Assembly (NCBI GenBank): GCA_964443495.1
Contig: CAYUCS010000001.1
Location: 405,496-469,495, forward strand
Direction: 5' to 3'
Length of the DNA stretch: 64,000 nucleotides
Origin: an uncultured Gammaproteobacteria bacterium
GTDB lineage: Bacteria; Patescibacteriota; Patescibacteriia; Patescibacteriales; GWE2-39-37
Numbering within the stretch: the stretch's first letter is position 1; each line of letters starts with the position of its first letter. Below, piece by piece: positions 16,677-50,139 of the stretch. The position numbers were made by a program, and so were the translations under genes. The notes below the pieces were generated by a model. That model was not told where the DNA came from and searched no databases. It saw nothing but the letters and a program-made list of their open reading frames with translations.

Positions 16677-16684
16677 GATTGGTT

Positions 16685-17801: not shown

Positions 17802-17870
17802 TTTCCTAAATTTTCAATGAAAATGCGATTCGGTTTGGAAATTAGAAGTTAGAAATTAAGAATAGATTTT

Positions 17871-19010: not shown

Positions 19011-19012
19011 AT

Positions 19013-20478: not shown

Positions 20479-20479
20479 T

Positions 20480-20509
20480 TTGATATTGGGCACGCAATCG
20501 TGTTATAAT
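20480..20509 (+). promoter_or_regulatory. Candidate promoter
   Basis: TTGATA (20480-20485), 18-nt spacer, TG-T-TATAAT (20501-20509), about 30 nt upstream of the ATG at 20540. Confidence 0.4.
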
Positions 20510-20539
20510 AATATTGATTTAATCATTAGCGGGACAAAT

Positions 20540-20872
20540 ATGACCAAGGAACGATGGAATGATCTGGTCGGCCAGATCAAGGACAATTTCAGCGTCGAGG
20601 AAGAGGCTAAAGAGGAGCTGTCAGAGGAGGAGGGGGTCGGTAATCGCTATTTCGTGATTTTCAACGGCCCCTTGGGTCGTATGATGCTCGAGCTTATCGA
20701 ACGCCCGGTCATCTTGGATAAGAAGACCAAGTATTCGAACCGCATCGGTTCACAGACTCAAGTCGAGTATGTCTACAGCGAGGACGAGAACACCTACAAG
20801 ATGCACGCTTATCGCTGGGATGAGGCTGCTGATGATTGGCTGGAGATGGAAGCCGGTAAACTATCATTTTAA
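20540..20872 (+). CDS. Hypothetical acidic protein
   Basis: 110 aa counted from the internal ATG downstream of the candidate promoter. No recognised motif. Confidence 0.45.
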   Translation: MTKERWNDLVGQIKDNFSVEEEAKEELSEEEGVGNRYFVIFNGPLGRMMLELIERPVILDKKTKYSNRIGSQTQVEYVYSEDENTYKMHAYRWDEAADDWLEMEAGKLSF

Positions 20873-20891
20873 TAGCTCTTATCTTATCCTT

Positions 20892-34900: not shown

Positions 34901-35409
34901 ATGCGATGATATGTCAGGACGTCTTTCCGTCGCCTAAATTCGATTATTGCTGCGCGGGCCAGGATAACCTTATCAAGACCAATGCTATCGGGCCCTTCAC
35001 GATCGTCAGGGCGGATGCCAGTGATTTGACCGTGCCTTCGTTCACGGGCGTATATGCGAACGTGGGCACCACCTTCAATTATTATAATTGCGACCAAGTC
35101 TGCCAAAAGGTGGGCAAGGTCTGCATCGGCGTCGGCTTGAATGACCACACCGCCAATGCCTGCAAATCGATAGTGCATGATGTCGGCGGCGCTTGCAGCT
35201 GTTCTAACGGCATCAACCAATACGATGACGATTGCAAGTCTAAGTTCAGTCTGGCCGGCGCCAGTACGGTCGTGTCGTTAGCCGCCGCTGACTGGGGTTA
35301 TGCCTGGGACTGGGTGTTCGGTTACTTGGGCGTCTGCAATGACTGCTCAGCCATCGGCGGATTGAGCCAGTGGTATCATGTGGGCGAAACGGCCTGTTAT
35401 TGCCAATAG
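31942..35409 (+). CDS. Large secreted cysteine-rich surface protein (Ig-like and cysteine-rich repeat regions)
   Basis: 1155 aa with a signal peptide. Contains a putative Ig-like segment (VVNLPPGLAVSTAGNVGTISGIP...LSITATDEYG) and CGDN.../CGDGIVQAEYNENCED cysteine-rich repeats. Minus-strand ORFs over it are shadows. Confidence 0.7.
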   Translation: MHKYFMTSKAEKLFILPVTALLALCIGWAIAAPSPDAIGVRVAPNPKHYSAARWYQTQGFKGSPQALIVDGYEAIRDGRTVYIDVANVVEAAPANNELSTNDQFFTNIFIISYNQDAEKATEDIFGQILANWKFNNNILKAGACSQTATQSCTYPPACIAPDCPTCAKDEYCVSSHEVSVRDTKRLADLADLNDLLDAYKAKNGGLCPKLESGSYLPNKSVSTWPSWQETLGKALGANLPFDPINKMGACAGFNAKTCWNEATRAFADPTPADANFDLPDGSRAYVYMSSPDGRSCGFFVTTESGLICNAAGTCTVGNNLGTPNPFSVLPGAIVSVGGATNTPPTLVCGSMSSFPKDPFGGFVSAFDIDRDPISGWQVEPLAPANWAAWQAAGWVWQGGQTGLVFANTAVANQKKLTAQQGGNTGNYQVRVTVSDGSATSSKICNVSMGASLPIIQALNVKVKAGNMATTTIFGYETNKNYGLSFTFTGDSGGGPIANFLTCTSTSPILGEPDGKYNCYINQKITYQPGVYNVTVTGIDTQGDTAMTSFIFDITNTPPRVDAVVCDPVIRALGGYSCTITGVDDEGNAITNYSVVNLPPGLAVSTAGNVGTISGIPALVGAGPHNLSITATDEYGFTGPATTFNLQVNNFCGDNVRQQPNTEGAGGSPAGTEQCDGTDGVAANPPLSNAGRQYGCTTVGTNVQLTGNQFTGTDASCGLAGPNVTGSCNGAFWTYNLVTPAVSQFYLTVETSNWGTSPYGSLEAFAPAGGEENVCPQAGVQHHVRVLVDGNYKGEFCANAVAPGGANVFSNVALGALFGGNHVLRLEWDNDWTYNPDAIWGTADDADSNIKIYTIKAEDKPCPEGGNCAGTCMQFGGYCGDGIVQAEYNENCEDAITDSAQRCGILNSNTILDSDGSAFDCTTLSNNTIGQTGIDSLYTALCDSCQIGCQADPNRNKLGMGCYLGQASPNAAPPAGSCQKGVWVCQANAMICQDVFPSPKFDYCCAGQDNLIKTNAIGPFTIVRADASDLTVPSFTGVYANVGTTFNYYNCDQVCQKVGKVCIGVGLNDHTANACKSIVHDVGGACSCSNGINQYDDDCKSKFSLAGASTVVSLAAADWGYAWDWVFGYLGVCNDCSAIGGLSQWYHVGETACYCQ
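32005..32820 (+). other. Intragenic high-GC3 segment (compositional outlier) in the 5' quarter of the 31942-35409 gene
   Basis: By eye, about nine codons in ten end in C or G: aac/gac/ttc/atc/tac are used almost to the exclusion of aat/gat/ttt/att/tat. Usage reverts abruptly near 32815. Confidence 0.7.
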
Positions 35410-35415
35410 AAATAT

Positions 35416-37059
35416 ATGGAAAAAAATAAGAAAATCATAATTGCCGGGTCGGTCGCGGTCGTCGTGCTCCTGGCTTGGCTTACTTATTATCTTGCCAGCC
35501 ATAATGCGCCGGAAGGGGCCGTTGTGCCGCCGGCCGGCACCTCCACGCCGCCGACAGCCGTCGTGCCGCTGACGAAGCCGGCGAAAGTGCCGATCCAGAT
35601 GGCTGAAGCGAAGCAGCCGTCTCTGGAAGATTGTGCCAAACTTGACGACAAAGCCAAGCAGGATTGCGTCAACAGATTCCGCGCCAGCCAAGCCTTCCTC
35701 TCTCGCGACCCTCGCAAGTGCCTCGAAGTCGATGATTATACGTTGCGCAACCAATGCCTTTACAACAGCCTGGCGCCCCTCAAGAAGGCGGATGATTGCG
35801 AGCGAATCGCAGACAAGAACTTCCGCGAACGCTGCGAGGAGGACATCGGCATGACGGTCCAGGGGGCTGATTATTGCAATAATTTCGATGATGAACCGAG
35901 CGAGAAACAGGAATGCGTCGATCGCGTGACGGCCATCGAAGCCTCCAAGCGGGGCGATATCCAGGCGTGCGCGGGCATCAAGACTCTTGAGTACAGCTTT
36001 TTGTGCGAGATAAATTCGATGAGACGCAACGGCAATGTTTGCGAGGAAATAAAGGACATGAAAAAGAAGAATTTGTGCATTTCCCGAGTGGACTTTTCCA
36101 AGGCGAAGACCAAGGATGATTGCGACAAGCTGCCGGATGAAACGTACAAGAAGGTCTGCAATAACGTCCTCGGAACCACCTTGGATGACAAGACGCCTTT
36201 CGATTCCGACGGCGACGGACTCAATGATTACCGCGAGCTTTGGATCAGTACCGATCCGTTCAATCCGGATTCCGACGGCGACGGCCTCAATGATAATGCC
36301 GAGTACAACGTCAATTTTACCGATCCAGCCGATCCTGACTCGGATGATGACGGAATCAAGGATGGCGCCGAGATCGCGAGGGGGACCAATCCGAAAATAC
36401 CCAATGCGCTTACTGCCAATAAGGTCGACACGGATGAGGACGGCCTGTTGAACAAGGACGAAGTCCGGTGGGGCACCAATGCCGCGAATGCGGACACCGA
36501 CGGTGATGGCGTCATGGACGGGACCGAGATCGGCGATGCGACCGACCCGCTGGGGCCGGGCTGGAAGCAGGATTCCGACAAGGATGGCCTTATAGATGCC
36601 GATGAGAAATTTTACAAGACAGATCCGCTCAATGCCGATTCCGATGGCGACAAGGCTAAGGACGGCAGCGAAGTCAAGTCCGGCAGCGATCCGCTCGGCA
36701 AGGGCTTGATGGATTTCGATCAGGACGGTTTGAGCGACGGCGAAGAGGCGAAGAAAGGTACCAATCCGGCGCTGAAAGACAGCAACGGCGATGGCATCAG
36801 CGATTCCGAGTCGCTGCGCCGGAAAATCGATCCGATCAGCGATGATCCTGATAAGGACGGCCTTTCGAACGCCTTTGAAATAAAAATCAAGACCGACCCC
36901 TTCAGTCCTGATTCCGATAAGGATGGACTGAATGATTTTGACGAGGCGGAAAAATATCACACCGACCCGCTTAAGAGAGATACTGACGGCGACGGCTTCG
37001 GCGATCATGATGAGATAAAGAAAGGGTTCAATCCGCTTTCGAAGATAAATAAGAAATAA
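35416..37059 (+). CDS. Membrane-anchored protein with an array of thrombospondin-type-3-like calcium-binding repeats
   Basis: N-terminal TM helix. About 12 or more motifs of the DSDGDGLND / DTDGDGVMD / DSDKDGLID type lie between roughly 36190 and 37010. The 553-aa minus-strand ORF is a shadow of the GAY-rich repeats. Confidence 0.75.
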   Translation: MEKNKKIIIAGSVAVVVLLAWLTYYLASHNAPEGAVVPPAGTSTPPTAVVPLTKPAKVPIQMAEAKQPSLEDCAKLDDKAKQDCVNRFRASQAFLSRDPRKCLEVDDYTLRNQCLYNSLAPLKKADDCERIADKNFRERCEEDIGMTVQGADYCNNFDDEPSEKQECVDRVTAIEASKRGDIQACAGIKTLEYSFLCEINSMRRNGNVCEEIKDMKKKNLCISRVDFSKAKTKDDCDKLPDETYKKVCNNVLGTTLDDKTPFDSDGDGLNDYRELWISTDPFNPDSDGDGLNDNAEYNVNFTDPADPDSDDDGIKDGAEIARGTNPKIPNALTANKVDTDEDGLLNKDEVRWGTNAANADTDGDGVMDGTEIGDATDPLGPGWKQDSDKDGLIDADEKFYKTDPLNADSDGDKAKDGSEVKSGSDPLGKGLMDFDQDGLSDGEEAKKGTNPALKDSNGDGISDSESLRRKIDPISDDPDKDGLSNAFEIKIKTDPFSPDSDKDGLNDFDEAEKYHTDPLKRDTDGDGFGDHDEIKKGFNPLSKINKK

Positions 37060-37997: not shown

Positions 37998-38025
37998 TTG
38001 CCTGTCAGGTCAAACGTGGTATAAT
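37998..38025 (+). promoter_or_regulatory. Candidate promoter of the signalling block
   Basis: TTGCCT (37998-38003), 16-nt spacer, TATAAT (38020-38025) with an upstream TGG. Only about 10 nt before the first ATG, so a very short leader is implied. Confidence 0.45.
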
Positions 38026-38035: not shown

Positions 38036-39916
38036 ATGCCATCAAACAAGGAGCGGAAAAAAAATTTCTGTTGCGACTACTCACAGCTGATCAGCTCTGC
38101 AGCTGTGATTTTTGTAGTTTTGGATCGCAATGCCAGAGTCGTCGAACTAAATCAGTTCGCGCGCAGCTTCCTGGGGTACGAAAACGATGAAATTCTGGGG
38201 CTCGATTGGTTCGAAACCTGCGTGCCCGATAGCAAGGAAATCAAGAAGGATTTCAAAGCCATTGTCGGCGGCAAGTCCGCTCCGCCTCCGTTTTTCAAGG
38301 GCAAGGTGGTCGCGAAAGACGGCCGCGTGAGAACGGTCAGCTGGGTGACAACTTTCATCAAGGACTCGAGCGGACGGATCGAATATGATATCAATCTCGG
38401 CTATGACGTAACTGAAGCGGAGGCCGAGGAGAGGCGCCATATCGCCACGACCCGGCTGATGGACTCCATTTTTCACACCTCGCCTCAGGCTATCATGTCA
38501 ATCGATCGGAATATTGTCGTAGATAACTGGAACGAGTCGGCCGAACGGATTTTCGGCTATTCCAGGAAGGAGGTCTTAGGCAAGATTTCCCCCACCGTCC
38601 CCAAGGGTTCATATGAGGCGGTCAAAAAGATGTATGCCAAGGTCTTTGACAAGGGCGAAAGCCTGAGTTATGAGGGGTTGCGCAAGCGGCGGGACGGCAC
38701 TGATGTGCATGTCGCAGCTTATGCCGGGCCGATCAGGGATGACTCCGGCAAAGTGATCGGCGCGATGGTTCTGGTCGAAGATATCACTAAGCACAAGCAA
38801 ATCGAGAAGACCAATGCATATTTGCGCCAGGGCATCGAGAAATCGGACAGCGCCATCTTTCTGACCGACAATCAAGGAAAAATCACTTACGTCAATCCCG
38901 CTTTCGAAGCGCTTTACGGCTATAGCTCTTCGGAGGCGGTCGGCAAGACATCGAGATTCATCAAATCTGACAGGCAGAGCGATAAGGAATATGATGCCCG
39001 CTGGCGCTCGCTCATGTCGGGGAAGAATGTCGCCGGAGAGATATATAATAAGGCTAAAGACGGCCGAGAGGTCATTGTCGCCAATTCGACCAACGCTGTC
39101 ATTGACGATTACGGCAGTATCATCGGATTCATTGCCATTCAGCACGACATGACAGATGACGTCAACAGTAAGAAGAAGTTGGTTGAGCTGACCGAATTGA
39201 ATCAGCGAATCATCGATAGTTCGCCCTTGGGCATATTCATCCTTGATCGGGATGGCGTAATCGAGTATGTGAACGATAAGATGCTCGAGATTTCCGCCAG
39301 TCCCAAGGAAAAGCTGATCGGCTACAACTTGCTGAGTAACGAGAATTACATCCGACTCGGCTTGAGCCGGCGGATCATGGACTCCATCCATCAAGGAACT
39401 TCTTTCGAAACGGAGCCGATGAAATATCGCTCGCTTTTCGGCAAGAAAGAGACGTACCGCATCTTTTCCGGAGCTCCGATCAAGTCTTCAGACGGAAAAT
39501 CAAGCAAGGTTCTGATTACTATCAGGGATGTCTCTGAGTTGGTCAGCCACAATGAGGAACTCGAACGGTTCAATAGTTTGATGGTGGGCAGGGAACTCAA
39601 GATGGTGGAATTGAAAAGCCAGGTCCATCAGCTCAAGAGCCGGCTGGCCAGCATTGAATCGAAGAAAAAGCAGGAGTTTGTCTTGCCGTCGTTCGTCTCT
39701 GACGAAACTGCCGCCGTGCAGCTCGACGAGCTCGTGCAGGCCATCGATCGTGTTATTGGCGACTACGGAAAATTCTTTTCCGCGGACTTGCCTGAGTCGG
39801 AGCTCTGGTTCTTGGAGAAATACCAGATCCGCCATTCGATCAGGAATTTGATCAATATGAATATCGAATCGAAAAAATCATTAGCAAGTTTGGTAAAAAA
39901 GCATGAAAGATCATAA
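38036..39916 (+). CDS. Four-PAS-domain sensor protein with C-terminal coiled coil and no recognisable output domain
   Basis: Four PAS-like cores (VLDRNARVVELNQFARSFLGY, SIDRNIVVDNWNESAERIFGY, LTDNQGKITYVNPAFEALYGY, ILDRDGVIEYVNDKMLEISAS), then GRELKMVELK. No HisKA, GGDEF or HTH motif. Alternative TTG start at 38030. Confidence 0.75.
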   Translation: MPSNKERKKNFCCDYSQLISSAAVIFVVLDRNARVVELNQFARSFLGYENDEILGLDWFETCVPDSKEIKKDFKAIVGGKSAPPPFFKGKVVAKDGRVRTVSWVTTFIKDSSGRIEYDINLGYDVTEAEAEERRHIATTRLMDSIFHTSPQAIMSIDRNIVVDNWNESAERIFGYSRKEVLGKISPTVPKGSYEAVKKMYAKVFDKGESLSYEGLRKRRDGTDVHVAAYAGPIRDDSGKVIGAMVLVEDITKHKQIEKTNAYLRQGIEKSDSAIFLTDNQGKITYVNPAFEALYGYSSSEAVGKTSRFIKSDRQSDKEYDARWRSLMSGKNVAGEIYNKAKDGREVIVANSTNAVIDDYGSIIGFIAIQHDMTDDVNSKKKLVELTELNQRIIDSSPLGIFILDRDGVIEYVNDKMLEISASPKEKLIGYNLLSNENYIRLGLSRRIMDSIHQGTSFETEPMKYRSLFGKKETYRIFSGAPIKSSDGKSSKVLITIRDVSELVSHNEELERFNSLMVGRELKMVELKSQVHQLKSRLASIESKKKQEFVLPSFVSDETAAVQLDELVQAIDRVIGDYGKFFSADLPESELWFLEKYQIRHSIRNLINMNIESKKSLASLVKKHERS

Positions 39917-40091
39917 TCTGGCCGACGCTGTCGGCAAGCTGATCCAGTCGGAGAAAGACATCCGTTCCAAATGCCAACGGTTGCTCGCATCAAGCAATGA
40001 CGAGTCGGAAATCTCGGCTTACGAGGCGGTCATAAGGTCTAAGGATCGGTGCATCTTGGAGTTGAACAAGATTTTTGAGCTGCTGAGTTAA
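39903..40091 (+). CDS. Small hypothetical helical protein
   Basis: 62-aa ORF overlapping the PAS gene end by 14 nt. No motif. Confidence 0.3.
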   Translation: MKDHNLADAVGKLIQSEKDIRSKCQRLLASSNDESEISAYEAVIRSKDRCILELNKIFELLS

Positions 40092-40103
40092 TAAATAAAA
40101 GAT

Positions 40104-41324
40104 ATGAAGAAAATTTTGCTGGGAATCATGGCGCTAGGGGCGATTATCGTAAGCTTGTTTTATCTGGCTTTGTTTTTCGGCGGTTCCTTGTCGGAGACAG
40201 CGATTGAAACGCCAGGAGTCAGCGACACGGCCATCATGATCGGCACTTCGTTGCCGATGACCGGACACGTCAGCTTCTTCTCCGAGTATTATTTCGGCGG
40301 ACAGGCTTTTTTCGACAAGGTGAACGATGAGGGCGGGGTCCATGGTCGCAAGATCAGGGTCAAGGTCTATGACGACCAGTATGACCCGGCCAAAACCGTG
40401 GCCAACACCCAGCGCCTGATAAGCCAGGATAAGGTTTTTGCATTATTCAATTACGTCGGCACGCCGACTGGCATCAAGGCTTTGCCATTGATTAATGAGG
40501 CTAAGATACCCTTGGTCGGCATTGGCACGGGGGCGGACGTTTTTCGCAATCCGGTCCAGCCTTATGTCTTCAATCTGAGGGCGTCATACCACCAAGAGGC
40601 GGGGGCGTTCATTAAGGGCGTGGTTGAAGATCTTAAGATGACCAAGGTGGCGGTTTTCTACCAGTTCGATGACTACGGCTTCGACGGCCTGAAGGGCGCT
40701 GAGATCGCCTTGGCCGGATACGGCCTGAAGCCGGTCGTCACTGCCAGCTACCAACGCGGCAGCCTGGATGTCGAAGCTGCTGCCGAGGCTGTTAGAAAAT
40801 CCGGCGCCGAGGCTGTTTTTATGGTCAGCGTCTACGCTCCAGCCAGCAAGTTCATCAAGCTTGTCAGGTCCAAGGATTATAATCCGATTTTCGGGAACCT
40901 GTCTTTCGTGGGTTCGGAGGCCTTGGCAAAGGAACTGGGGACTGCCGGCGACGGGGTGGTGGTGACGCAAGTCGTGCCGCCTCAAGCGGACAAGAACATC
41001 CTGGTTGGCGTCGATGAATATGTCGCGGTCTTGAAGAAATATTACCCGGAAAAGACACCTACCTTCAGCGGACTTGAAGGGTATCTAGACGCCGAAATAA
41101 TGACCGAGGGGTTGGAGCGTGCCGGGCCTGACTTGACGCGGGGGAAATTCATCCGATCGCTGGAGTCGATCCGCAAGTATTCCCTGAATATCGCCTCGAC
41201 GGTCAATTTCAGCGAAAAGAACCACCAAGGAATGAGTCGGATTTACCTGACTTATATCAAGGATGGCAAGTTCGTCCTGTTCACGGATTGGCAGGAGGCC
41301 TTGAACGAAAAAGATTCAAAATAA
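40104..41324 (+). CDS. Periplasmic-binding-protein type I solute-binding protein (branched-chain amino acid/LivK-like)
   Basis: N-terminal anchor present. IGTSLPMTGHVSFFSEYYFGGQAFFDKVNDEGGVHGRKI, YDDQYDP and FNYVGTPT match the family pattern. Confidence 0.75.
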   Translation: MKKILLGIMALGAIIVSLFYLALFFGGSLSETAIETPGVSDTAIMIGTSLPMTGHVSFFSEYYFGGQAFFDKVNDEGGVHGRKIRVKVYDDQYDPAKTVANTQRLISQDKVFALFNYVGTPTGIKALPLINEAKIPLVGIGTGADVFRNPVQPYVFNLRASYHQEAGAFIKGVVEDLKMTKVAVFYQFDDYGFDGLKGAEIALAGYGLKPVVTASYQRGSLDVEAAAEAVRKSGAEAVFMVSVYAPASKFIKLVRSKDYNPIFGNLSFVGSEALAKELGTAGDGVVVTQVVPPQADKNILVGVDEYVAVLKKYYPEKTPTFSGLEGYLDAEIMTEGLERAGPDLTRGKFIRSLESIRKYSLNIASTVNFSEKNHQGMSRIYLTYIKDGKFVLFTDWQEALNEKDSK

Positions 41325-42271
41325 TGCACTCACTCAAAGACAAGATACTGCTTTATATACTCTTGCCGGTAGCCTTGGTGTTCGTCGGATTCCTGTTTTT
41401 CAATTTGAGCATCAAATCAGTGATCGATAACCATTTCAGGGAGCACGCCGATGAAGAGGCCTTGAAGATGGCCCACCTGGCAAAGGACGCGATTTTGCTC
41501 GGCGACAAGGATAAGCTTTTGCAGATCATCTTCGACGAGAAGTATCTGACCAAGGGCATCTCCTATTTTGCGGTGTATGACAAGGAGGGCAAGCTTTTGG
41601 CAGACACGAGCTTGGGCCGAGAGGCGACGAACCCGGTCTTTTTCCAGCCGGTCGATACCTCGCACGTTCCGGCTTATCGCAAGGACGGCAAAGTCATTTA
41701 CATCGACAAGCGCGACACGCAATTGGGCCAAGGCATCGTCGTTCAACCCGAGGGTAAGATAGAGTACGTGAAGCAGCAGCGTTATATCGAAGATAGCGGA
41801 GATTACCGCTATTATCTGACCGACATCCCGGTCCATGCCGGCCTTTACGACATCGGGATGATCAGGATCATATTCAATTTCAGCGAATTGACAGATGAAT
41901 TGGGCGGCATGAACAAACTGGTCTTCATTTTCGGTATCGTTTTCTTCGTGGTCTTGATTTATCTGTCGGGACACTTATCCAGATCGCTTCTTGCTCCTAT
42001 CAAGAGCCTGACTAGAGTCGCCCAGGAATATGCCACCGGCAATTTCGACTCCTTCGTCCAGGTCTCGACCCTGGATGAGGTCGGTGATTTGGCGGTCACT
42101 TTCAATATGATGAAAAGCAATCTTGAGGAGAGCCGCAAAAAACTGTTGGATGAGAAAAAGGCCGTCGAGGCCAAGGCGAACGAGCTCGAGGCCTGGCAGA
42201 AGACGGCCGTGGCACGCGAGCTCAAAATGGTCGAGCTCAAGAACAGGATCAAAGAGCTTGAGTCAAAATAA
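41324..42271 (+). CDS. Membrane sensor with extracytoplasmic domain and HAMP domain, ending in a coiled coil with no kinase domain
   Basis: Start overlaps the solute-binding-protein stop (TAATG). Two TM helices. HAMP region LAPIKSLTRVAQEYATGNFDSFVQVSTLDEVGDLAVTFNMM. C-terminal ARELKMVELK motif. Confidence 0.7.
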   Translation: MHSLKDKILLYILLPVALVFVGFLFFNLSIKSVIDNHFREHADEEALKMAHLAKDAILLGDKDKLLQIIFDEKYLTKGISYFAVYDKEGKLLADTSLGREATNPVFFQPVDTSHVPAYRKDGKVIYIDKRDTQLGQGIVVQPEGKIEYVKQQRYIEDSGDYRYYLTDIPVHAGLYDIGMIRIIFNFSELTDELGGMNKLVFIFGIVFFVVLIYLSGHLSRSLLAPIKSLTRVAQEYATGNFDSFVQVSTLDEVGDLAVTFNMMKSNLEESRKKLLDEKKAVEAKANELEAWQKTAVARELKMVELKNRIKELESK

Positions 42272-42293
42272 CTAATCATTAAATACAAAAAAC

Positions 42294-42788
42294 ATGCAGA
42301 GCTTAAGCGAAAAGCTTATCTGGCCCGTCCTAAGGATCGTCTTGGGGTGGTATTTTTTCTGGCCTTTCATTGACAAGGTTTTCGGCCTCGGATTCAACAC
42401 CCCTGCTGGCAAGGCCTGGATCGACGGAGTTTCGCCGACGTACGGCTTCTTGGCCAAGGCGACCAAGGGGCCGTTCGCCTCGTATTTCCAGGCTATGGCC
42501 GGCAGTCATTTTGTCGAGTGGCTATTCATGATCGGCTTGCTACTGATCGGTCTCAGCCTGATGTTGGGCGTGGCAATGCGCCTGGCCTGCTTTTCCGGCG
42601 CGACGATGATGGCGCTGATGTATCTGGCCGGTTCGATCTGGCCTCTGCATAATCCGTTCTTGGATGAGCACATCGTCAATGGCCTGCTGCTGATCGGCTT
42701 GTCCGGTACCGGAGCCAATATGCGTTTCGGCCTGGGCGCCGCTTGGTCAAAGGTCGGCCTGGTCAAGAGATTCCCATTCCTGCAATAA
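42294..42788 (+). CDS. DoxX-family membrane protein
   Basis: 164 aa with 4 TM segments and an RIVLGWYFFWPFIDKVFG-type N-terminus. Confidence 0.5.
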   Translation: MQSLSEKLIWPVLRIVLGWYFFWPFIDKVFGLGFNTPAGKAWIDGVSPTYGFLAKATKGPFASYFQAMAGSHFVEWLFMIGLLLIGLSLMLGVAMRLACFSGATMMALMYLAGSIWPLHNPFLDEHIVNGLLLIGLSGTGANMRFGLGAAWSKVGLVKRFPFLQ

Positions 42789-42799
42789 CATAACCTTTC

Positions 42800-44716
42800 A
42801 TGGACTTGGCGGAAATAACACAAAAGATCAGACGTAGGATATTCCCGGGTGAAAATTTACGGGAGATAGCCAATAATGAGATCCGGGATTTTTTCTTCTC
42901 GGGGCTTTATCGGTTGGAATTCTTCCTGATGGGGGGCTTCGCATTTGTCATGCTTTTTTGCACTTATTTGATGACCGTGAACGGTTTTCTGGGGACTAAT
43001 GACAATGGGGCCATTACGGCGCTTTATACTTTTTTTGCCCTCCTTGGCATCTACTTTTTCTGCAGCGACTTCGTCAAGCGCAAGCGGCTAGTGCCAGCCA
43101 AGATCCATTTTGTGATCGATTCGGTCGTCTTCTATCTGATGATGACCGGCATCGTCTTCTTGTCCGGTGGAATCCAGTCGCCGTTTGCCTTTCCGATGCT
43201 TTTTTTGATGGCCATTTCCGCGCCACTGTACGGCAACATGAAGTACGCTATCATTTTCGTGACTATTTCCTCGGGCACGTACCTTTGGTGGGCAGTGACC
43301 GGCGACGAGGTCGCGTCTGAGTTCTATGAGCACATTCTTGAGGCTGTTTCCTTGCTGACAGCGACAGTGGTTATAAAGAGCGAGATTAACCGCTTTTCCA
43401 GAAAAGCCGACGAGTACAAGCACCTGTCTAAAAGCAACGACGACTTGCTCGTCAAGATGAAAAACTACAGCATCTCGCTCGAGGCGACAGTCAAAAGCAA
43501 GACCGCCGAACTGTCCGACAGCCTTAAATTCGTCGAAGCGTCCAAAAGGGAGCTCGAAAACCAGCGCGCTGCTACCATGAATATACTCGATGACATAATC
43601 GAGGAAAGAAATGCTACCTCCTTTGAAAAAGACAAGCTTGGCGCAATCTTACAGAGCATCGGTGACGGCGTCATGGTCGTTGATGATAAAGGGGAAGTGA
43701 CCATCTGCAACAGGATAGCCGAGAAGATTACCGGCTATTCTTATGATGAGGTGGCCGGCAAGCATTATAATGATTTTTTCAAGCTCGTTTATGAGAAGGA
43801 TGGCAAACCGAATGACATAATCGCCAGGGTTTTCAAGACTAAGCGGATTGAAGAGTTGACTGATCACACCGTCCTGATCAAGAAGGACGGCAGCAAGGTT
43901 CCGGTCGCTGACTCGGCCGCGCCAATATTCAATAAGGCTGGCGATGTCGTCGGCTGCATCATTGTCTATCGCGACGTTACCCGCGATCGGGAAATCGACC
44001 GCCAGAAGTCCGAGTTCGTCTCAGTGGCTTCGCATCAGCTCCGTACGCCGCTGACCAGCATCAAGTGGTTCCTGGAAATGATGCTCGACGGCGATGCCGG
44101 CGTAGTGTCGGAAGAGCAGAAAGAGCTTTTGGAGCAGGTGTCGGAATCGACTGAGCGCATGATCGGCTTGGTAAATACCTTGCTTAACATCTCCCGTATC
44201 GAATCAGGGCGCGTCAAGGTCGATCCGCAACCGACCGACCTGAACCACTTGATCGAGGGTATCGTCCAGGAACAGTTGCCGATCGCTACTCAAAGGGGGG
44301 TTAGTTTGAAGGTGACCAAGCCCGAGCTGCCGACCATAAGCATCGATCAGAAATTGGTCCAGGAGGTTTTTGCCAATCTTCTGTCCAATGCTATAAAATA
44401 CACCCCGACCAAGGGCAAGGTCGCGCTCAAAGCCAAGATTGACGGGGAATATATCCAGTTCGCCATTTCCGATACCGGCATGGGCATCCCGGAAAAGGAC
44501 AAGGAGAAGATGTTCCATAAGTTCTTCCGTGCCGAGAATGCCGTGGTTCGGGAAACCGAGGGCAACGGCATGGGTCTTTACGTCTGCAAATCGATCGTCG
44601 AGCTTTCCGGCGGCCGGATCTGGTATGATTCGGTCGAGAACAAAGGCACGACTTTCTATTTTACCTTGCCTTTAAAAGGTAGTATAATGAGAGAAGGCGA
44701 AAAATCATTAGTTTAA
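42800..44716 (+). CDS. Sensor histidine kinase (polytopic N-terminus, PAS, HisKA, HATPase_c)
   Basis: About 6 TM segments. PAS core VVDDKGEVTICNRIAEKITGY, H-box SEFVSVASHQLRTPLTSI, N-box LLSNAIKYT, G-boxes DTGMGIP and GNGMGLY. Confidence 0.9.
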   Translation: MDLAEITQKIRRRIFPGENLREIANNEIRDFFFSGLYRLEFFLMGGFAFVMLFCTYLMTVNGFLGTNDNGAITALYTFFALLGIYFFCSDFVKRKRLVPAKIHFVIDSVVFYLMMTGIVFLSGGIQSPFAFPMLFLMAISAPLYGNMKYAIIFVTISSGTYLWWAVTGDEVASEFYEHILEAVSLLTATVVIKSEINRFSRKADEYKHLSKSNDDLLVKMKNYSISLEATVKSKTAELSDSLKFVEASKRELENQRAATMNILDDIIEERNATSFEKDKLGAILQSIGDGVMVVDDKGEVTICNRIAEKITGYSYDEVAGKHYNDFFKLVYEKDGKPNDIIARVFKTKRIEELTDHTVLIKKDGSKVPVADSAAPIFNKAGDVVGCIIVYRDVTRDREIDRQKSEFVSVASHQLRTPLTSIKWFLEMMLDGDAGVVSEEQKELLEQVSESTERMIGLVNTLLNISRIESGRVKVDPQPTDLNHLIEGIVQEQLPIATQRGVSLKVTKPELPTISIDQKLVQEVFANLLSNAIKYTPTKGKVALKAKIDGEYIQFAISDTGMGIPEKDKEKMFHKFFRAENAVVRETEGNGMGLYVCKSIVELSGGRIWYDSVENKGTTFYFTLPLKGSIMREGEKSLV

Positions 44717-44727
44717 ACGCATATTCC

Positions 44728-45105
44728 ATGAAAAAAACCATTTTGATCGTTGAAGACGAGAAGTCATTGCAACGCATTCTTTTCAAAAAGCTCCAGCAGG
44801 TCGAGAATTGGGATATTTTGCAAGCCTTCAATGGGCAGGAGGCCCTGGACTTGATCAAGAGGCGGAAAGTTGACCTGGTATTGCTTGATATTGTCATGCC
44901 AGTCATGGATGGCTTGACGTTGCTTCAGGAATTGAAGCAGTTGGACGAGTTGAGCAATAAGAAGGTTATCGTCCTGACCAATTCGGCCTCATTTGAGCAG
45001 GTTTTCCAAGAGAACGGCGTCAAATACCTGGTGAAGAGCAATCACACCCTGGATGACCTGATCACCCGCATTAGCGAAGAGATGGAGGAAATCGCTGAAA
45101 AATAA
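44728..45105 (+). CDS. Single-domain response regulator (CheY-like receiver)
   Basis: ILIVEDE, DLVLLDIVMPVMDG, VLTN and YLVKS. Confidence 0.85.
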   Translation: MKKTILIVEDEKSLQRILFKKLQQVENWDILQAFNGQEALDLIKRRKVDLVLLDIVMPVMDGLTLLQELKQLDELSNKKVIVLTNSASFEQVFQENGVKYLVKSNHTLDDLITRISEEMEEIAEK

Positions 45106-45133
45106 TAAAGCAAAGGGGGAGTAAATCACATCT

Positions 45134-45508
45134 ATGGAAACAATGAAGAAAATTGCTGTCGTCGAGGACGATAAGTTTTTGCGCAAGGTCTATGAAAGCA
45201 AATTGCCCAAGGAAGGCTTTTTAGTGGTTTCCGCCGGTGATGGCAAGTCCGGGCTTGAGCTCATTCGGAAGGAGAAGCCAGATTTGGTGCTTCTGGATTT
45301 GATCATGCCGATTATGACCGGATTCGAGGTGCTCGAGTCATTGAAGGCAGACACCAAATCGAAGATGCCGAAAGTGGTTGTCTTATCGAATCTGGGTCAG
45401 GACGAAGACATTGCTCGTTCCAAAGAGCTCGGTGCCTCCGATTTCCTGATCAAATCCAACCTGTCCATCAAAGAAATCGTAGAGAAGATCAAGCAATACT
45501 TAGCTTAA
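45134..45508 (+). CDS. Single-domain response regulator (CheY-like receiver)
   Basis: IAVVEDD, DLVLLDLIMPIMTG, VLSN and FLIKS. Confidence 0.85.
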   Translation: METMKKIAVVEDDKFLRKVYESKLPKEGFLVVSAGDGKSGLELIRKEKPDLVLLDLIMPIMTGFEVLESLKADTKSKMPKVVVLSNLGQDEDIARSKELGASDFLIKSNLSIKEIVEKIKQYLA

Positions 45509-45512: not shown

Positions 45513-45540
45513 TTGAGGTTTTGGCGTTTTGTGGTATAAT
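45513..45540 (+). promoter_or_regulatory. Candidate promoter of the major pilin gene
   Basis: TTGAGG (45513-45518), 16-nt spacer, TATAAT (45535-45540) preceded by TGTGG. Confidence 0.45.
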
Positions 45541-45584: not shown

Positions 45585-46283
45585 ATGAACAAACGTAACC
45601 GCACCCAAGGTTTTACGTTGCTTGAGCTCTTGATTGTCATTGCCATCATCGCCATCCTTTCGGTGATCCTGGTCTTGGTCTTGAACCCGGCAGAAACCTT
45701 GAAGAAATCGCGCGATGCCCAGCGTATCTCGGATTTGAACACTTTGAAGACGGCCATCGGCTTGGTAGTTACTGCCAGTACGACACCGTATCTTTCATCA
45801 GGAAACGCCAATTGTTTTGGTGCGGCGACACCGAAGGTTTTTTATAGCTCATCGGCTAACTTTGCTTGCGGTGCTGTGCCCGCAAACGTGCAGGGCATAG
45901 ATGCATCAACCACCCCGGCCTTGTCTGCCAACACTTGGTGTGCCACCACAACTGCTGCCAGTCTCGCTAATATTGACGGTACCGGTTGGATTCCATTGGC
46001 TTTCTCCTGGCTGCCGGGCGGTTCTCCGATTTCCAATCTGCCGCTCGACCCTTCGAACACGGTTACGGCCGCTGGTCCGGTCAATGCCGACTTGGTTTAC
46101 CGTTATGCCTGCCAGGCTGGCGTAATTTCAGCAAAGCCTAGTTACGTCTTTGAAATCGATGCGGCTCTGGAAAGCGCGGCATACACTTCCGATGACGATA
46201 AGCGCATCAAGGATGGCGGAGATAATGCCAGCCTGTACGAGGTTGGCACTGATTTGAAGCTGCTCGGATCTGGTATTTTCTAA
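45585..46283 (+). CDS. Type IV pilin (candidate major pilin)
   Basis: Prepilin signal MNKRNRTQG|FTLLELLIVIAIIAIL with E at +5. Has its own promoter and a strong terminator, consistent with a highly expressed monocistron. Confidence 0.85.
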   Translation: MNKRNRTQGFTLLELLIVIAIIAILSVILVLVLNPAETLKKSRDAQRISDLNTLKTAIGLVVTASTTPYLSSGNANCFGAATPKVFYSSSANFACGAVPANVQGIDASTTPALSANTWCATTTAASLANIDGTGWIPLAFSWLPGGSPISNLPLDPSNTVTAAGPVNADLVYRYACQAGVISAKPSYVFEIDAALESAAYTSDDDKRIKDGGDNASLYEVGTDLKLLGSGIF

Positions 46284-46295
46284 GGCATTTATTAA

Positions 46296-46325
46296 TAGCC
46301 CCCTCGAAAGAGGGGGCTATTTTTG
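46296..46325 (+). terminator. Rho-independent terminator after the pilin gene
   Basis: TAGCCCCCTC-GAAA-GAGGGGGCTA followed by TTTTT. Confidence 0.8.
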
Positions 46326-46338: not shown

Positions 46339-46989
46339 ATGCGAATATTGCTTGGGCAAGCACCCGTGTGGCTATTCTTTGTTTTGGAACTGGCATCATT
46401 GATGGTGGCAGGTTTTTATTATGCGAAGAGCCGGAGCGACCTAAAAGCGGTTTTTTACCGCCTGTTCTGGATCGTTTTAGCGCTTAAGCTATTAAAGCCG
46501 GCATTTTTTACTTGGTCGCAATGGTATGTCTGGCACGTTTCCAATCCTGATTTTTTATTGGCGCCATTGTCGCCGAATCTTAAGTTGCTTGGCTGGCTCG
46601 ATATCTTTTCTTTTCTCAAGGACGTTTCCGGCGGATATTTCATCTTTTATTCTTTCGGTCGCTTCTGGTTCGGCGTTTTGATCGCTTTGGCCGCAGCCAC
46701 CCTGTGGTGGCTGGTGCTTAAGCTTTTGGCCAAGAGGCGCCCAGAAGCGATGCGGCCAGAGGAGTTATCACTGGCTTGGATTACTGCAGCGATCGCAGGC
46801 TGGCCGGGATTCATCCTGTATGTCCCGATGTCATTGGGCTTCGCTGTTGCCGGCGTTCTTTATCTTACGGCGCGGAAAATCGACTCAAGACTGCCTATTG
46901 GTTGGCCCATGATAGCCGCCTCATTTTTAGTCGCAGTCGCCGGCACATTCCTGATCGGGCTGCTCGGGTTATCCGTGTATAAAATCTGA
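46339..46989 (+). CDS. Hypothetical polytopic membrane protein in the pilus cluster
   Basis: 216 aa with about 6 TM segments. Sits where a prepilin peptidase might be expected, but no GxGD or paired-Asp motifs were recognised. Confidence 0.5.
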   Translation: MRILLGQAPVWLFFVLELASLMVAGFYYAKSRSDLKAVFYRLFWIVLALKLLKPAFFTWSQWYVWHVSNPDFLLAPLSPNLKLLGWLDIFSFLKDVSGGYFIFYSFGRFWFGVLIALAAATLWWLVLKLLAKRRPEAMRPEELSLAWITAAIAGWPGFILYVPMSLGFAVAGVLYLTARKIDSRLPIGWPMIAASFLVAVAGTFLIGLLGLSVYKI

Positions 46990-47151: not shown

Positions 47152-47219
47152 GATACTAAGTTTTGACTTTTGGATTTTGATTTTTGACTTGAAACATCGT
47201 GCACATCAAGGAGGAAAAT

Positions 47220-48917
47220 TTGAAGCAGATCCTGCTCGATTCGGGGTTAGTCGATGAGGCCGCCTGGAAGAGCGCCAAGGAGGAGGCTGACAATGCCGGC
47301 CAACCGGTCGAGAGCGTCTTGATCAGCCGCGAGCTGGTTACCGACGATTATTTGACCGAGCTTTTAGAGCCATATTTCGGCGTGCCGTTGGCAAACCTGA
47401 AAAAGCAGAATATCGCCCAGGAAACGCTCAATCTGTTGCCGGAAAATTTCGCCAAGTCCCATGCTGTAGTCCTGTTTGACATCGACCGCGCAGCGGGCGT
47501 AGCCAAATTGGCCATGCGCGACCCGTTGGATTTCGACACGATCGGATTCGTTCGACTAAAGCTTGATTGCTGGGTCGAGCCGTACCTTGCCTCGCAGTCC
47601 GGAATCTCTTTCGGATTGCGCCAGTATAAGAAACAAGGCGGGCAGAATTTTTCCCAAGTCATCGAACAGAGCCTCAAGGAGGCTAATTCCTTGGCCGGAG
47701 ATACGGATGTCGGCAAGAAGGCGGAGGCGGTGCCGATCATTACCATTCTGGACAGCGTGCTGGAGAATGCAGCCGTTTCCGGAGCTTCTGACATCCACTT
47801 CGAGCCGATGGCCAAGAAGTTTCTGGTCCGCTATCGCGTCGATGGCGTGATGCAGGAAATTTTAAGCCTGCCTAAAGCGATGGCGCCGATACTTGTGGCG
47901 CGCGTAAAGATTCTGGCAGGCATGCAGATAGATGAGCACCGCACCCCTCAGGACGGGCGCTTCCGCTTCGAGCTCGAGAGCGGCGCCAAGGTGGATGTCC
48001 GCGTCAATTGCATGCCGATCCTTAACGGTGAGAAAGTCGAGATGCGCCTTCTGAAAAGCTCGACTAAGCCGTTGTCGCTCGGCGAGCTGGGGTTCAGCGA
48101 AGGCGATATTGCCACCATTGAAGACGAGATCAAGAAGACTCATGGCATGATCCTGGTTACCGGTCCGACCGGGCACGGCAAGACGACTACGCTTTATTCC
48201 ATCTTGCATATTCTCAATACGCCGAAAGTCAATATTACGACCATCGAGGACCCGATCGAATACGAGGTGGCGCGCTTGAACCAAACCCAGGTGAACGCCA
48301 AAGCGGGCATCACTTTTGCCAACGGCCTGCGCGCCCTCCTGCGCCAGAACCCGGACATCATCATGATCGGCGAGATCCGCGACAATGAAACTGTCGATAT
48401 CGCCATCCATTCCGCCTTGACCGGGCACCTGGTGCTTTCGACCATCCACACCAACGATGCGCCGTCGGCCATCCCTCGTTTGGCCGATATGGGCGCGGAA
48501 AATTTCCTTTTGGCCTCGACTTTGAACCTGGTCATCGCGCAGCGTTTAGTGCGTCGTATCTGCATTTCCTGCATCGAGTCGTACAAGCCGTCGCCGTCGG
48601 TCAAGAAGATGATTTCTGATCAGCTGGTCTCGCTTCATGGCAAGAAGATCGACAAGGAGATGATTCCCGATTCTATTTTCCGCGGCAAAGGCTGCAAAGT
48701 CTGCGGCGGTTCCGGTTTCACCGGCCAAGTCGGCATCTATGAAGTTCTTAAAGTCAATGAGGATATCCGCAAGCTGATCACGGACAAGGGTTCGTTGGAT
48801 GAGGTTAGGAAAGAGGCTGTAAGCCAGGGCATGGTCACCATGTTCGAGGACGGGCTGAAGAAAGTCGAGCAGGGAATCACTACTATCGAAGAGGTGCTGC
48901 GCGTCGTGCGCGAGTAA
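47220..48917 (+). CDS. pilB: Type IV pilus assembly ATPase PilB (GspE family)
   Basis: Walker A GPTGHGKTTT, Walker B DIIMIGEIRD, a His box, and the tetracysteine CISC...CKVCGGSG. Start moved to the TTG at 47220 because AAGGAGG (47208-47214) lies inside the track's GTG-started ORF (47199). Confidence 0.9.
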   Translation: MKQILLDSGLVDEAAWKSAKEEADNAGQPVESVLISRELVTDDYLTELLEPYFGVPLANLKKQNIAQETLNLLPENFAKSHAVVLFDIDRAAGVAKLAMRDPLDFDTIGFVRLKLDCWVEPYLASQSGISFGLRQYKKQGGQNFSQVIEQSLKEANSLAGDTDVGKKAEAVPIITILDSVLENAAVSGASDIHFEPMAKKFLVRYRVDGVMQEILSLPKAMAPILVARVKILAGMQIDEHRTPQDGRFRFELESGAKVDVRVNCMPILNGEKVEMRLLKSSTKPLSLGELGFSEGDIATIEDEIKKTHGMILVTGPTGHGKTTTLYSILHILNTPKVNITTIEDPIEYEVARLNQTQVNAKAGITFANGLRALLRQNPDIIMIGEIRDNETVDIAIHSALTGHLVLSTIHTNDAPSAIPRLADMGAENFLLASTLNLVIAQRLVRRICISCIESYKPSPSVKKMISDQLVSLHGKKIDKEMIPDSIFRGKGCKVCGGSGFTGQVGIYEVLKVNEDIRKLITDKGSLDEVRKEAVSQGMVTMFEDGLKKVEQGITTIEEVLRVVRE

Positions 48918-48921
48918 ACAT

Positions 48922-50139
48922 ATGGCTAGCTATATATACGAAGTCATCGATAAGAACGGCAAGACGATCAAGGGCGAATTGATCGCCGCTTCGCGCGACG
49001 AAGCCCTCGGCATGCTCGAGCGCCGGCACATGATGCCGGTAGAAGTTACGGAGAAGGGGGGTGTCGGGCGCAGCCTGTCGACAATCAATATCGGTTTTGA
49101 ACGCTTTGGCGCTTTGGACCGGATCATCTTGGTGCGCAACCTTTCGGTTACTCTCAAGGCCGGGCTGAGCCTGCTTGAGTCGATTGAAATACTGATTGCC
49201 GACTCGACCAAGAAGAAAACGCTAGATATTCTGTTGACTGCCAAGGCGTATTTGCAGAACGGACAAGACTTGTCGGCGGCTTTGGCCAAGTATCCTCGAT
49301 ATTTTCCGGCCATGTTCATCGGCATGGTCAGGGCGGGCGAGCTGTCAGGTCAGCTCGACAAGTCATTGGAAGAATTGTCGCAGCAGCTCTCGAAGGAATA
49401 CAGCTTGGCCAAGAAGGTGAAATCCGCCTTAGCCTACCCCATGATCCTCCTTGCCGCCTCGGCCGGCATCGTGGTCATGCTCATGACTTTCGTCCTGCCG
49501 CGTCTGGCTAAGACTTTTTCCCAGAGCCAGGTCAAGCTGCCGTGGCTGACCAGCGCTTTGATGTCGCTCAGCAAATTCATTACGTCGCATGTGTTCGTTG
49601 ATATCGCCTTTCTTGCGTTTCTCGGCTGGCTTTGGTGGTTCGTGCGCCAGACTGATCGTGGTCGCAATCTGCTCGCTGAGATCCTGTTTTCCATTCCGGC
49701 GGCCCGCAATCTGGTCAAGAAGATCATCCTGGTCAGGCTTACCAGGACGCTTGGCAGCTTGCTTTCAAGCGCTATGTCGATTACCGAATCGTTGGAGCTC
49801 GTTTCCAAAGTCATCAATAATCGGCGCTATCAGTCGGCGCTGGATAAGGCCTTGCAGGATGTCAAGAACGGCAGCCCGATTTCCAATGTTTTTCGAGACC
49901 ATGCCGAGCTGTTCCCGCGATTCCTGACCAGCCTGGTAACGGTCGGGGAAAAGACCGGTACCATCGACCAGGTATTGAAGACCTTCGCCGACTTCTATGA
50001 CGAAGAAGTTGACAATGCCTTGAAGGATCTAGCTACCTTCCTTGAACCGGTCCTGCTGTTGCTGATGGGCATCATCGTCGGCGTGATCGCCCTAGCCATC
50101 CTGTTGCCGATTTATCAACTGGTGGGTAATTTCGTCTGA
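48922..50139 (+). CDS. pilC: Type IV pilus platform protein PilC (GspF family)
   Basis: 405 aa with two GspF-type repeats, 3 TM segments and the C-terminal LEPVLLLLMGIIVG motif. Confidence 0.9.
   Translation: MASYIYEVIDKNGKTIKGELIAASRDEALGMLERRHMMPVEVTEKGGVGRSLSTINIGFERFGALDRIILVRNLSVTLKAGLSLLESIEILIADSTKKKTLDILLTAKAYLQNGQDLSAALAKYPRYFPAMFIGMVRAGELSGQLDKSLEELSQQLSKEYSLAKKVKSALAYPMILLAASAGIVVMLMTFVLPRLAKTFSQSQVKLPWLTSALMSLSKFITSHVFVDIAFLAFLGWLWWFVRQTDRGRNLLAEILFSIPAARNLVKKIILVRLTRTLGSLLSSAMSITESLELVSKVINNRRYQSALDKALQDVKNGSPISNVFRDHAELFPRFLTSLVTVGEKTGTIDQVLKTFADFYDEEVDNALKDLATFLEPVLLLLMGIIVGVIALAILLPIYQLVGNFV

Follow-up and report, generated by a model that had tools for sequence, protein, structure and literature searches.

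Here we describe a block of eight genes (positions 38036-45508) in a 64,000-nucleotide stretch of contig CAYUCS010000001.1, referred to below as the window, whose products include two sensors, a histidine kinase and two receivers and may together form a multi-input two-component system. The lineage of the window falls within the candidate phyla radiation (CPR); a homologue of the block's HAMP protein, 71% identical, is named Candidatus Falkowbacteria, and almost all window genes lie on the + strand. The block opens with a cytoplasmic PAS protein (38036-39916, +), in which Pfam finds four PAS stretches and nothing past about residue 517, and whose start is most likely the ATG at 38036 rather than the alternative at 38030. 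A 62-residue open reading frame (ORF; 39903-40091, +) follows, then a LivK-type solute-binding protein with an N-terminal hydrophobic segment (40104-41324, +; Peripla_BP_6, Pfam E=2e-61) and a membrane sensor (41324-42271, +) that has HAMP as its sole Pfam match (E=1e-11) and contains no kinase domain. The stop codon of the binding-protein gene overlaps the ATG of the HAMP gene as TAATG (41322-41326). A small 164-residue membrane protein (42294-42788, +), a histidine kinase (42800-44716, +) and two single-domain receivers (receiver 1, 44728-45105, +; receiver 2, 45134-45508, +) complete the block, and Pfam and NCBIfam place no DNA-binding domain in any of the eight proteins.

Gene order, domain content, the stop/start overlap and the lack of a DNA-binding output had all been given in a preliminary description of this DNA, and our annotation agrees with it on each. 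Two of its labels hold in part. The small membrane protein, named DoxX there, scores below the Pfam gathering thresholds for DoxD (22.1 against 22.7 bits) and DoxX (19.2 against 23.6 bits), and "DoxX-like" is the most that can be said of it. The receivers, named CheY-like, are indeed single-domain proteins, but no CheY, PilG or PilH model stands out for either. Both are 124-125 residues long, consist of the receiver domain alone (Response_reg, E=4.5e-20 for receiver 1 and 1.4e-22 for receiver 2) and have the phospho-acceptor Asp, Thr/Ser and Lys positions. The kinase combines a polytopic membrane domain, recognized by hydropathy, with an 80-residue stalk helix, a PAS domain, HisKA (E=1.6e-19) and HATPase_c (E=1.3e-29). 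The block is conserved in four relatives (L001-L004). Among relatives, identity to the window proteins is 41-71% for the HAMP sensor, 80-86% for receiver 1 and 89-93% for receiver 2, the maximum of the block; PAS protein orthologues in L001-L003 are 54-60% identical.

The two sensors share the nonapeptide RELKMVELK (39590-39616 in the PAS protein, 42215-42241 in the HAMP protein). It ends 9 residues before the C-terminus of the HAMP protein and 99 residues before that of the PAS protein; the preliminary description gave the same positions, with about 100 residues for the PAS protein. The similarity extends past the nonapeptide to a segment of 29 positions, 15 of them identical (ELE-x-F/W...V-G/A-RELKMVELK...L; BLASTP E=2e-5), and outside these 29 residues BLASTP finds no region of the two proteins that can be aligned. 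As also stated in the preliminary description, the nonapeptide is written in different codons in the two genes, so the conservation is at the protein level and does not stem from a recent DNA copy. We refer to the enclosing element as the tail. In the PAS protein it spans 39557-39646 (+; ELERFNSLMVGRELKMVELKSQVHQLKSRL) and is atypically internal, 99 residues before the stop, and there it is the best-conserved segment among the orthologues in L001-L003. In the HAMP protein, which is laid out as a first transmembrane (TM) helix, an extracytoplasmic alpha/beta domain, a second TM helix, HAMP and a single long helix, the tail forms the end of that helix (42182-42268, +; ELEAWQKTAVARELKMVELKNRIKELESK) and is followed by the stop. 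Both tails carry the signature RE[LM][KR]M[VI]ELK preceded by ELE-x-[FWY].

The two segments are heptad-like, with many Glu, Lys and Leu residues, and low-complexity coiled coils often match one another spuriously, which raises the question of whether the nonapeptide reflects chance or generic coiled-coil similarity with no specific function. The distribution of the tail refutes this explanation. A profile of 51 positions, searched against 1.84 billion representative proteins, matched 12,127 of them at E<=1e-3 and 306 at E<=1e-10. Among the 146 new best matches, the pattern RE..M.EL[KR] is exact in 139 and one residue off in the remaining 7, and it lies at most 31 residues from the stop in all but 3. 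For genomic context we assembled a genome set of 79 loci from GTDB species-representative genomes, drawn from the matches listed and holding 100 tail genes; in all 100 the motif stands 6-31 residues before the stop. The tail is thus a module of about 30 residues at the C-terminus, with the consensus ELERFNKLAVGRELKM[IV]ELKKRIKELE and, more fully, ...(ERT)KELE-K--ELERFNKLAVGRELKM[IV]ELKKRIKELE-K-stop; a longer variant ends ...EIN-L---LG--PPY. A genome scan returned at least 600 matching stretches, and the matches listed come from CPR, DPANN, Thermoplasmata, methanogens, Desulfobacterota, Omnitrophota, Planctomycetota, Nitrospirota, Chloroflexota, Elusimicrobiota and Proteobacteria. In CPR bacteria and Thermoplasmata archaea, HAMP-protein homologues of 290-322 residues keep RELKM[VI]ELK invariant while their extracytoplasmic parts cannot be aligned. 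A near-invariant signature across CPR, DPANN, other archaea and many bacterial phyla, a fixed C-terminal position, restriction to sensors, linkage to kinases (below) and the differing codons all contradict chance. The preliminary description had seen a generic heptad found indiscriminately as the undoing of its reading, and the search recovered a conserved C-terminal module instead.

The proteins that end in the tail are sensors. Pfam annotation of the 101 best matches of at least 150 residues gave HAMP in 47, PAS in about 40, dCache in 11, GAF in 5 and PocR in 4; annotation of the 100 tail genes of the genome set gave PAS in about 58, HAMP in 18, GAF in 11, dCache in 7, REC in 6, HisKA_7TM in 5, MEDS in 3 and CHASE4 in 3. 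HisKA, HATPase, GGDEF, EAL, MCPsignal and HTH are absent from the 25 most frequent families of both sets, and six tail proteins of the genome set include a receiver domain. Source annotations name these proteins by their sensor domain only ("PAS domain S-box protein", "HAMP domain-containing protein"), and beyond that they receive no attention. The tail itself corresponds to no Pfam or NCBIfam model, and a profile search found no significant match among PDB chains; a tblastn search of plasmids with the consensus tail gave no match, for which low-complexity masking is a possible cause. From these sequence comparisons we conclude that the tail is a real conserved module of sensor-only proteins, not a generic coiled coil.

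The neighbourhood of tail genes points to a partner. In the 79 genome loci (21 CPR-labelled, 58 non-CPR, many on short contigs) genes were called by an ORF script, and kinase cores, receivers and HAMP were marked with hidden Markov models seeded from the window. The usual order is one or more tail genes, a kinase and one or more receivers. A kinase lies at position +1 for 26 of 100 tail genes and at -1 for 9 of 84, at +2 for 15 of 88 and at -2 for 4 of 71, and within three genes downstream in 39 of 86 tail clusters; receivers are most frequent at +2 and +3. Tail genes occur in runs of one to four, with tandem sets of 2-4 in, for example, L040, L078, L043 and L022. The kinases share a motif, here called BOX, with the consensus A-x-L-N-[IM]-[LM]-E-D-x-[DE]-E (for example ATLNIMEDFQE or AVLNILEDLDE). 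Of the 38 kinases that follow tail genes, 33 have it, including one false match in the HisKA region, as against 13 of 37 other kinases of the same loci, most of them also near tails; among 785 non-kinase proteins it occurs in only 6, mostly cut-off sensor or kinase fragments. BOX has no Pfam or NCBIfam match and no significant PDB match in a profile search. The window kinase carries it as AATMNILDD (43568-43594, +; residues 257-265, within ENQRAATMNILDDIIEERNATS), invariant in L001-L004; this kinase gene lies one gene away from the HAMP sensor on the same strand and is followed by the two receiver genes. A six-frame search shows exactly two tails and one BOX in the window, all inside the block. 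An ERT-containing helix just upstream of the tail or BOX is common to many tail proteins and BOX kinases.

The linkage also holds in the reverse direction. We chose 120 metagenome loci solely by a degenerate DNA pattern encoding BOX; 98 of the 99 BOX genes called in them are kinases, and when the count is limited to BOX genes with at least 1.5 kb of upstream DNA, a tail gene lies within three genes upstream on the same strand in 44 of 56 (79%). Because tail proteins make up only about 7 per million representatives (12,127 of 1.84 billion), this linkage cannot be due to chance. BOX lies at a variable distance from the H-box, from 20 to more than 300 residues, in kinases of differing H-box types, and it therefore behaves as a portable module and not as a lineage marker. 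At the level of sequence, our data show that the tail and BOX exist as motifs, how they are distributed and built into proteins, and that their genes are reciprocally linked.

A group of kinases of 334-378 residues consists of nothing other than 3-5 tandem BOX repeats, with an exact period of 21 residues, followed by HisKA and HATPase (L074 4346-5482, L106 804-1847, L144 3846-4949 and L208 5255-6271; L131 1294-2298 and L205 2629-3645 on the - strand). Each has a PAS-tail gene directly upstream, which in L074 encodes five PAS domains and a tail. Judged by their architecture, these are in effect sensor kinases split into a tail sensor and a BOX kinase, and they provide the strongest argument that input would arrive at BOX. 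In L208 the upstream neighbourhood includes a very short tail protein (5001-5258, 85 residues) made up of the last PAS strand and the tail, whose gene overlaps the start of the BOX-repeat kinase; P0110 and P0191 are further short cases. The matches of a separate search, made with a tail profile of 53 sequences, were all proteins of at most 101 residues, mostly apparent fragments. The very short tail proteins may be decayed sensors or functional mini-regulators.

Based on these observations, we propose that the block encodes a two-component system with multiple inputs, in which separate proteins carry the sensing modules. A cytoplasmic four-PAS sensor and a membrane HAMP sensor fed by the adjacent solute-binding protein, neither with an enzymatic output, would dock through their basic tails on the acidic BOX helix of the kinase stalk, probably as a heteromeric helical bundle. 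The BOX site lies on the long helix of the stalk, after the membrane domain and before the PAS/catalytic core, and would be shared by both tails; docking would pass the state of each sensor to the kinase core, such that several signals converge on one kinase. The kinase would then phosphorylate both single-domain receivers, of which the highly conserved receiver 2 would probably act by direct contact on the adjacent type IV pilus machinery in this CPR lineage, with PilB as the likeliest target. We hold this explanation, taken as a whole, to be rather probable. The docking, the direction of signalling and the pilus target are what we infer from sequence, and the preliminary suggestion that the shared motif lets the sensors dock onto one another or onto the kinase gains strong comparative support, in a more specific form, from the reciprocal linkage of tails and BOX kinases and from the BOX of the window kinase.

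Several properties of the two elements are consistent with docking. The tail is basic and BOX acidic, with mean net charges over 20 residues of +1.9 and -3.6, respectively. Single-chain AlphaFold2 (AF2) models of the HAMP protein place a beta-rich domain (residues 63-186) between TM helices (5-60 and 187-238), with an unbroken helix over residues 253-315; the last 63 residues form one helix continuous with HAMP, at a predicted local distance difference test score (pLDDT) of 74-81. In the kinase model, residues 191-272, including BOX, form a single helix with pLDDT 86-97. With the heptad register read from position frequencies, several invariant residues would fall outside the a/d core (E, L, [IV] and E in the tail; L, N, L, E and D in BOX), a placement that fits surfaces of a higher-order helical bundle.

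Other observations weigh against this proposal. Mutual information over 76 tail/BOX pairs, a measure confounded by phylogeny, yielded no clear compensatory pair. About 20% of BOX kinases with upstream DNA have no nearby tail gene, and about half of the tail clusters, many of them on short contigs, have no kinase within three genes downstream. The internal tail of the window PAS protein is unlike nearly all others, and the extension after it is kept in L001-L003. A few Thermoplasmata proteins (L005_9 and L071_2) join a kinase core, PAS and a tail in one chain. Finally, three proteins carry BOX and tail on one helix, with 29 residues from the BOX Asn to the tail Arg (L060_11 at L060 9010-9762; L119_3 at L119 1807-3099; L140_1 at L140 378-1112, -). 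They may fit daisy-chaining, as adaptors that may accept one docking helix and donate another, but they complicate a simple picture of tail on BOX. Together with the kinase-tail and receiver-tail variants, they suggest that chains or networks can form.

An alternative is that the tail serves oligomerization or docks on a partner other than BOX (other sensors, the receiver, or the dimerization and histidine phosphotransfer (DHp) and catalytic core of the kinase), with BOX an unrelated kinase feature that travels with it. The several tail genes per locus would equally fit hetero-oligomers of sensors, receivers always accompany the kinases, and the lack of a clear compensatory pair in the mutual information fits this reading as well. 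We nevertheless consider it unlikely. The linkage (79% and about 84%) is specific to BOX kinases, with BOX-less kinases common in the same loci (24 of 37), and the presence of BOX in varied H-box types, at varied positions and as arrays that form the entire N-terminus of sensor-less kinases is hard to explain unless BOX receives the input.

A second alternative regards tail proteins as decayed histidine kinases that end in a DHp helix 1 without its His (VGRELKM where VSHELRT would be expected) and that would act in a dominant-negative or modulating manner through mixed DHp bundles. The tail opens with ELE-x-F, like the helix leading into many H-boxes, and it takes the position of DHp helix 1 in the BOX+tail proteins; hhalign put VgRELKM on SHELRT, and archaea are known to have sensor proteins of the 'HisKA, no HATPase' kind (PMC5847659). 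The hhalign comparison of the tail with DHp helix 1 is, however, not significant (probability 0.7%, P=0.08) and requires a register shift of one residue. Pfam HisKA matches no tail, and decay would leave unexplained why the partner kinases keep BOX. We regard this origin as very improbable.

If the tail docks on BOX as we propose, the two elements would constitute a hitherto unrecognized, portable in-trans docking code for sensor modules (PAS, HAMP, GAF, Cache or REC with a tail), used singly, in multiples or in daisy chains through BOX+tail adaptors, in bacteria and archaea and prominently in the small genomes of CPR and DPANN, which in Parcubacteria-type CPR would wire nutrient and cytoplasmic sensing to the type IV pilus through a highly conserved single-domain receiver. 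We offer this generalization tentatively, and on balance lean very slightly against it in its full extent.

The genes that accompany the sensors fit a role in signal perception. In about 15 of 19 cases the gene directly 5' of a HAMP sensor (a tail protein or a kinase) encodes a solute-binding protein, with many families represented, and no ATP-binding cassette (ABC) ATPase signature occurs anywhere in the 64-kb window; for these reasons the LivK-type protein, as far as gene context tells, most likely serves the HAMP protein as its dedicated ligand sensor and is not a transport component. The DoxX-like gene occupies the same position in L001-L004 and is an accessory gene kept immediately 5' of the kinase in the window lineage; DoxX-like genes also stand directly 5' of BOX kinases in L025 and L091. 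We considered a gene between sensor and kinase as a general third component of these systems and rejected it, because the gene varies by lineage and is often absent. Two other families were observed at this place. In some CPR-like loci, a helical protein of 136-143 residues (…LENDVFY…) is encoded between the HAMP-tail gene and the BOX kinase, in the slot of the window's DoxX-like gene (L089 4759-5169; L125 1970-2401; L153 2887-3315, -). In one metagenomic group, a highly conserved, Cys-rich protein of about 175 residues (175-182; …YDEGFISGLL…DCWCSGDRVCRF) lies between a tail sensor and a HAMP-BOX hybrid kinase (L087, L095, L108, L113, L115, L116, L121, L139, L147, L150, L152, L161, L168, L172, L182, L183 and L185); by its appearance it may be a V4R-type small-molecule-binding domain.

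Directly downstream of receiver 2 lies a pilin gene with an N_methyl motif (45585-46283, +), followed by genes for the PilB ATPase (T2SSE with an N-terminal MshEN domain) and the PilC platform protein (47199-50139, +, by Pfam). A consensus scan for promoter-like and terminator-like sites placed a promoter-like site before the pilin gene (45513-45540, +) and a terminator-like hairpin after it (46294-46321, +). It also found TTGCCT-16-TATAAT with an extended -10 just 5' of the PAS gene (37998-38025, +), a consensus match that marks a possible start of the sensory operon, and no strong terminator-like site within 38036-45508. The preliminary description had proposed that the receivers act on the pilus machinery and had looked to conserved linkage in relatives. 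Such linkage is present: the order of block, pilin and PilB/PilC is kept in L001-L003 (L004 ends past the receivers), and a PilB homologue (E<1e-70) lies within 6 kb of a tail gene in 7 of 21 CPR loci, compared with none of 58 non-CPR loci. The order in L001-L003 says little on its own, given that L001-L004 are collinear with the window far past the block, including Fpg and a TSP3 protein upstream. More telling is that PilB adjacency recurs in Parcubacteria, Falkowbacteria, Nealsonbacteria, Staskawiczbacteria and Saccharibacteria, and that PilB comes immediately after a receiver gene in three independent CPR lineages (L048, L050 and L066); L153 has, in this order, receiver, PilB, PilC, HAMP-tail gene, small gene, BOX kinase and receiver. 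The closest matches of receiver 2 outside its family include the PilB-adjacent receivers of L066, L050, L048 and L153.

These associations make the pilus idea plausible from gene linkage. They point, by association only, to an output of the receivers on the pilus machinery in CPR, with receiver 2 as the candidate output and PilB/PilC as the putative target. Two facts tell against it: the pilus link is missing outside CPR and in two thirds of the CPR loci, and CPR genomes are small, with pilus genes frequent in them. Pilus linkage is not a general property of tail/BOX cassettes, and the earlier proposal has linkage in its favour within CPR (7 of 21 loci) and none beyond it. The sensory block could be unrelated to pili, its receivers acting as phosphate sinks or regulating another process, and its adjacency to pilus genes following from a small genome and conserved gene order. 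The collinearity of L001-L004 well past the block would agree with this, as would the 14 of 21 CPR loci and all non-CPR loci that have no PilB within 6 kb; the recurrence of PilB adjacency in separate CPR classes, the receivers that abut PilB in three of them, and the place of those receivers among the closest relatives of receiver 2 would not. We give this possibility substantial weight and lean against it. The Thermoplasmata locus L005 shows an archaeal arrangement that echoes the CPR one. Genes for an archaeal pilus-type ATPase, platform protein and pilin (T2SSE, T2SSF and Pilin_N, 16146-20957) are preceded, at a distance of about 5 kb, by a tail cassette (with genes at 6227-9982 and 10001-10957) that encodes a kinase-PAS-tail protein and a HAMP-tail protein together with a binding protein and a dCache-HAMP-BOX kinase.

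Two-component systems are usually read as one sensor kinase and one regulator. The block has the HisKA and HATPase_c kinase and the phospho-acceptor receivers of the classical scheme and departs from it in lacking a DNA-binding response regulator, its receivers being single-domain. Three-component systems (LiaF-LiaSR, VraT-VraSR and QseG-QseE) resemble it in placing a separate, non-enzymatic protein beside a HisKA kinase with receiver output. Their auxiliary proteins are, however, system-specific and share no common motif, whereas here thousands of unrelated sensor architectures carry one helix and the kinases carry BOX; one kinase could be served by several sensors, and the pairing is found in bacteria and archaea alike. 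LuxP-LuxQ and TorT-TorS are solute-binding-protein-dependent sensor kinases, and CuaD with its kinase is another (PMC10384115). As in the window, the binding-protein gene in such systems adjoins the gene of a membrane sensor, but in the known systems the membrane partner doubles as the kinase; the HAMP protein of the window has neither HisKA nor HATPase, and kinase function resides in a third protein.

RetS and GacS are both full kinases that interact through their DHp and catalytic regions. They form a kinase-kinase heteromer (PMC5992135). Contact between cytoplasmic helical regions integrates signals there, as it would in the block, but RetS-GacS has no portable pair of tail and BOX. The archaeal 'HisKA, no HATPase' proteins are non-enzymatic and kinase-like (Galperin et al. 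2018, PMC5847659), and 'split histidine kinases' carry DHp and the catalytic and ATP-binding (CA) domain on separate proteins (PMC3591291). Both resemble the tail proteins in their sensor domains, in a C-terminal helical element with no ATPase and in the division of signalling functions. They differ in that 'HisKA, no HATPase' proteins keep HisKA with its His, while the tail is a single helix with no His and no HisKA match, and in that split kinases part DHp from CA, both of which the window kinase has. The signalling helix (S-helix), reportedly described by Anantharaman, Balaji and Aravind in 2006 as a linker of sensor proteins, is likewise a conserved coiled coil after HAMP or PAS; it joins two domains within one protein, whereas the tail is terminal, differs in signature and has its counterpart motif on a separate protein.

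In the Pil-Chp system (PilJ, ChpA, PilG and PilH), type IV pili are under chemosensory control. The block is similar, for the last step of signalling only, in having single-domain receivers beside pilus genes, with an output presumably by protein-protein contact on the motor. Unlike Pil-Chp, it has no CheA-type kinase (Hpt, P5, CheW-like), CheW, MCPsignal, CheR or CheB, and its kinase is an ordinary HisKA protein. The earlier view of the block as an alternative to a Chp/Che pathway thus holds as an analogy; CheA, CheW and the methyl-accepting chemotaxis protein (MCP) signalling domain have no counterpart in it. Searches with the motif strings of tail and BOX gave no relevant literature match, and those on the concept turned up nothing beyond split kinases and accessory proteins of other types. 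The pairing of tail and BOX is apparently an undescribed way of plugging separate sensors into one kinase, a statement tempered by the fact that its novelty is judged from negative searches and general knowledge.

If the docking code is true, thousands of orphan sensors with no output would gain a predicted partner and function, and the input to kinases that have no sensor domain of their own, only BOX repeats and a catalytic core, would be explained. A simple sequence rule would then predict which sensors feed which kinase, and the compact natural helix pair could be used for sensor-kinase rewiring in synthetic biology. CPR bacteria have few regulators and need pili for host attachment and DNA uptake; for them, the block would offer a concrete and testable route from environmental sensing to the type IV pilus.

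The remaining features of the window are described here as observations in their own right. The 62-residue ORF overlaps the end of the PAS gene by 14 nt and is 42-60% identical in L001-L003; conserved in four relatives and lineage-restricted, it has no Pfam or NCBIfam match and no homologue in the other 200 loci. The extension of about 90 residues that follows the tail of the PAS protein (39647-39916) overlaps this ORF, and both are specific to the lineage (L001-L003) and match no family. Between pilin and PilB, a polytopic membrane protein of 216 residues (46339-46989) is kept in L001 and L002 and has no family match; by its location it could be a divergent prepilin peptidase or some other accessory protein of the pilus. 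MshEN domains bind cyclic di-GMP in other bacteria. The N-domain of PilB (47199-48917) matches MshEN at E=5e-9, and no GGDEF or EAL protein is found among the scanned ORFs of the block and its flanks. Three very large proteins are encoded at 31942-37059 and 52177-57654 in stretches of raised G+C (0.55-0.60), with GC skew inverted in two of these stretches relative to the rest of the window; a Cys-rich protein of 1155 residues with a He_PIG Ig domain, a TSP3-repeat protein of 547 residues and a protein of 1825 residues with fn3 and Kelch-like matches, they are probable surface proteins.

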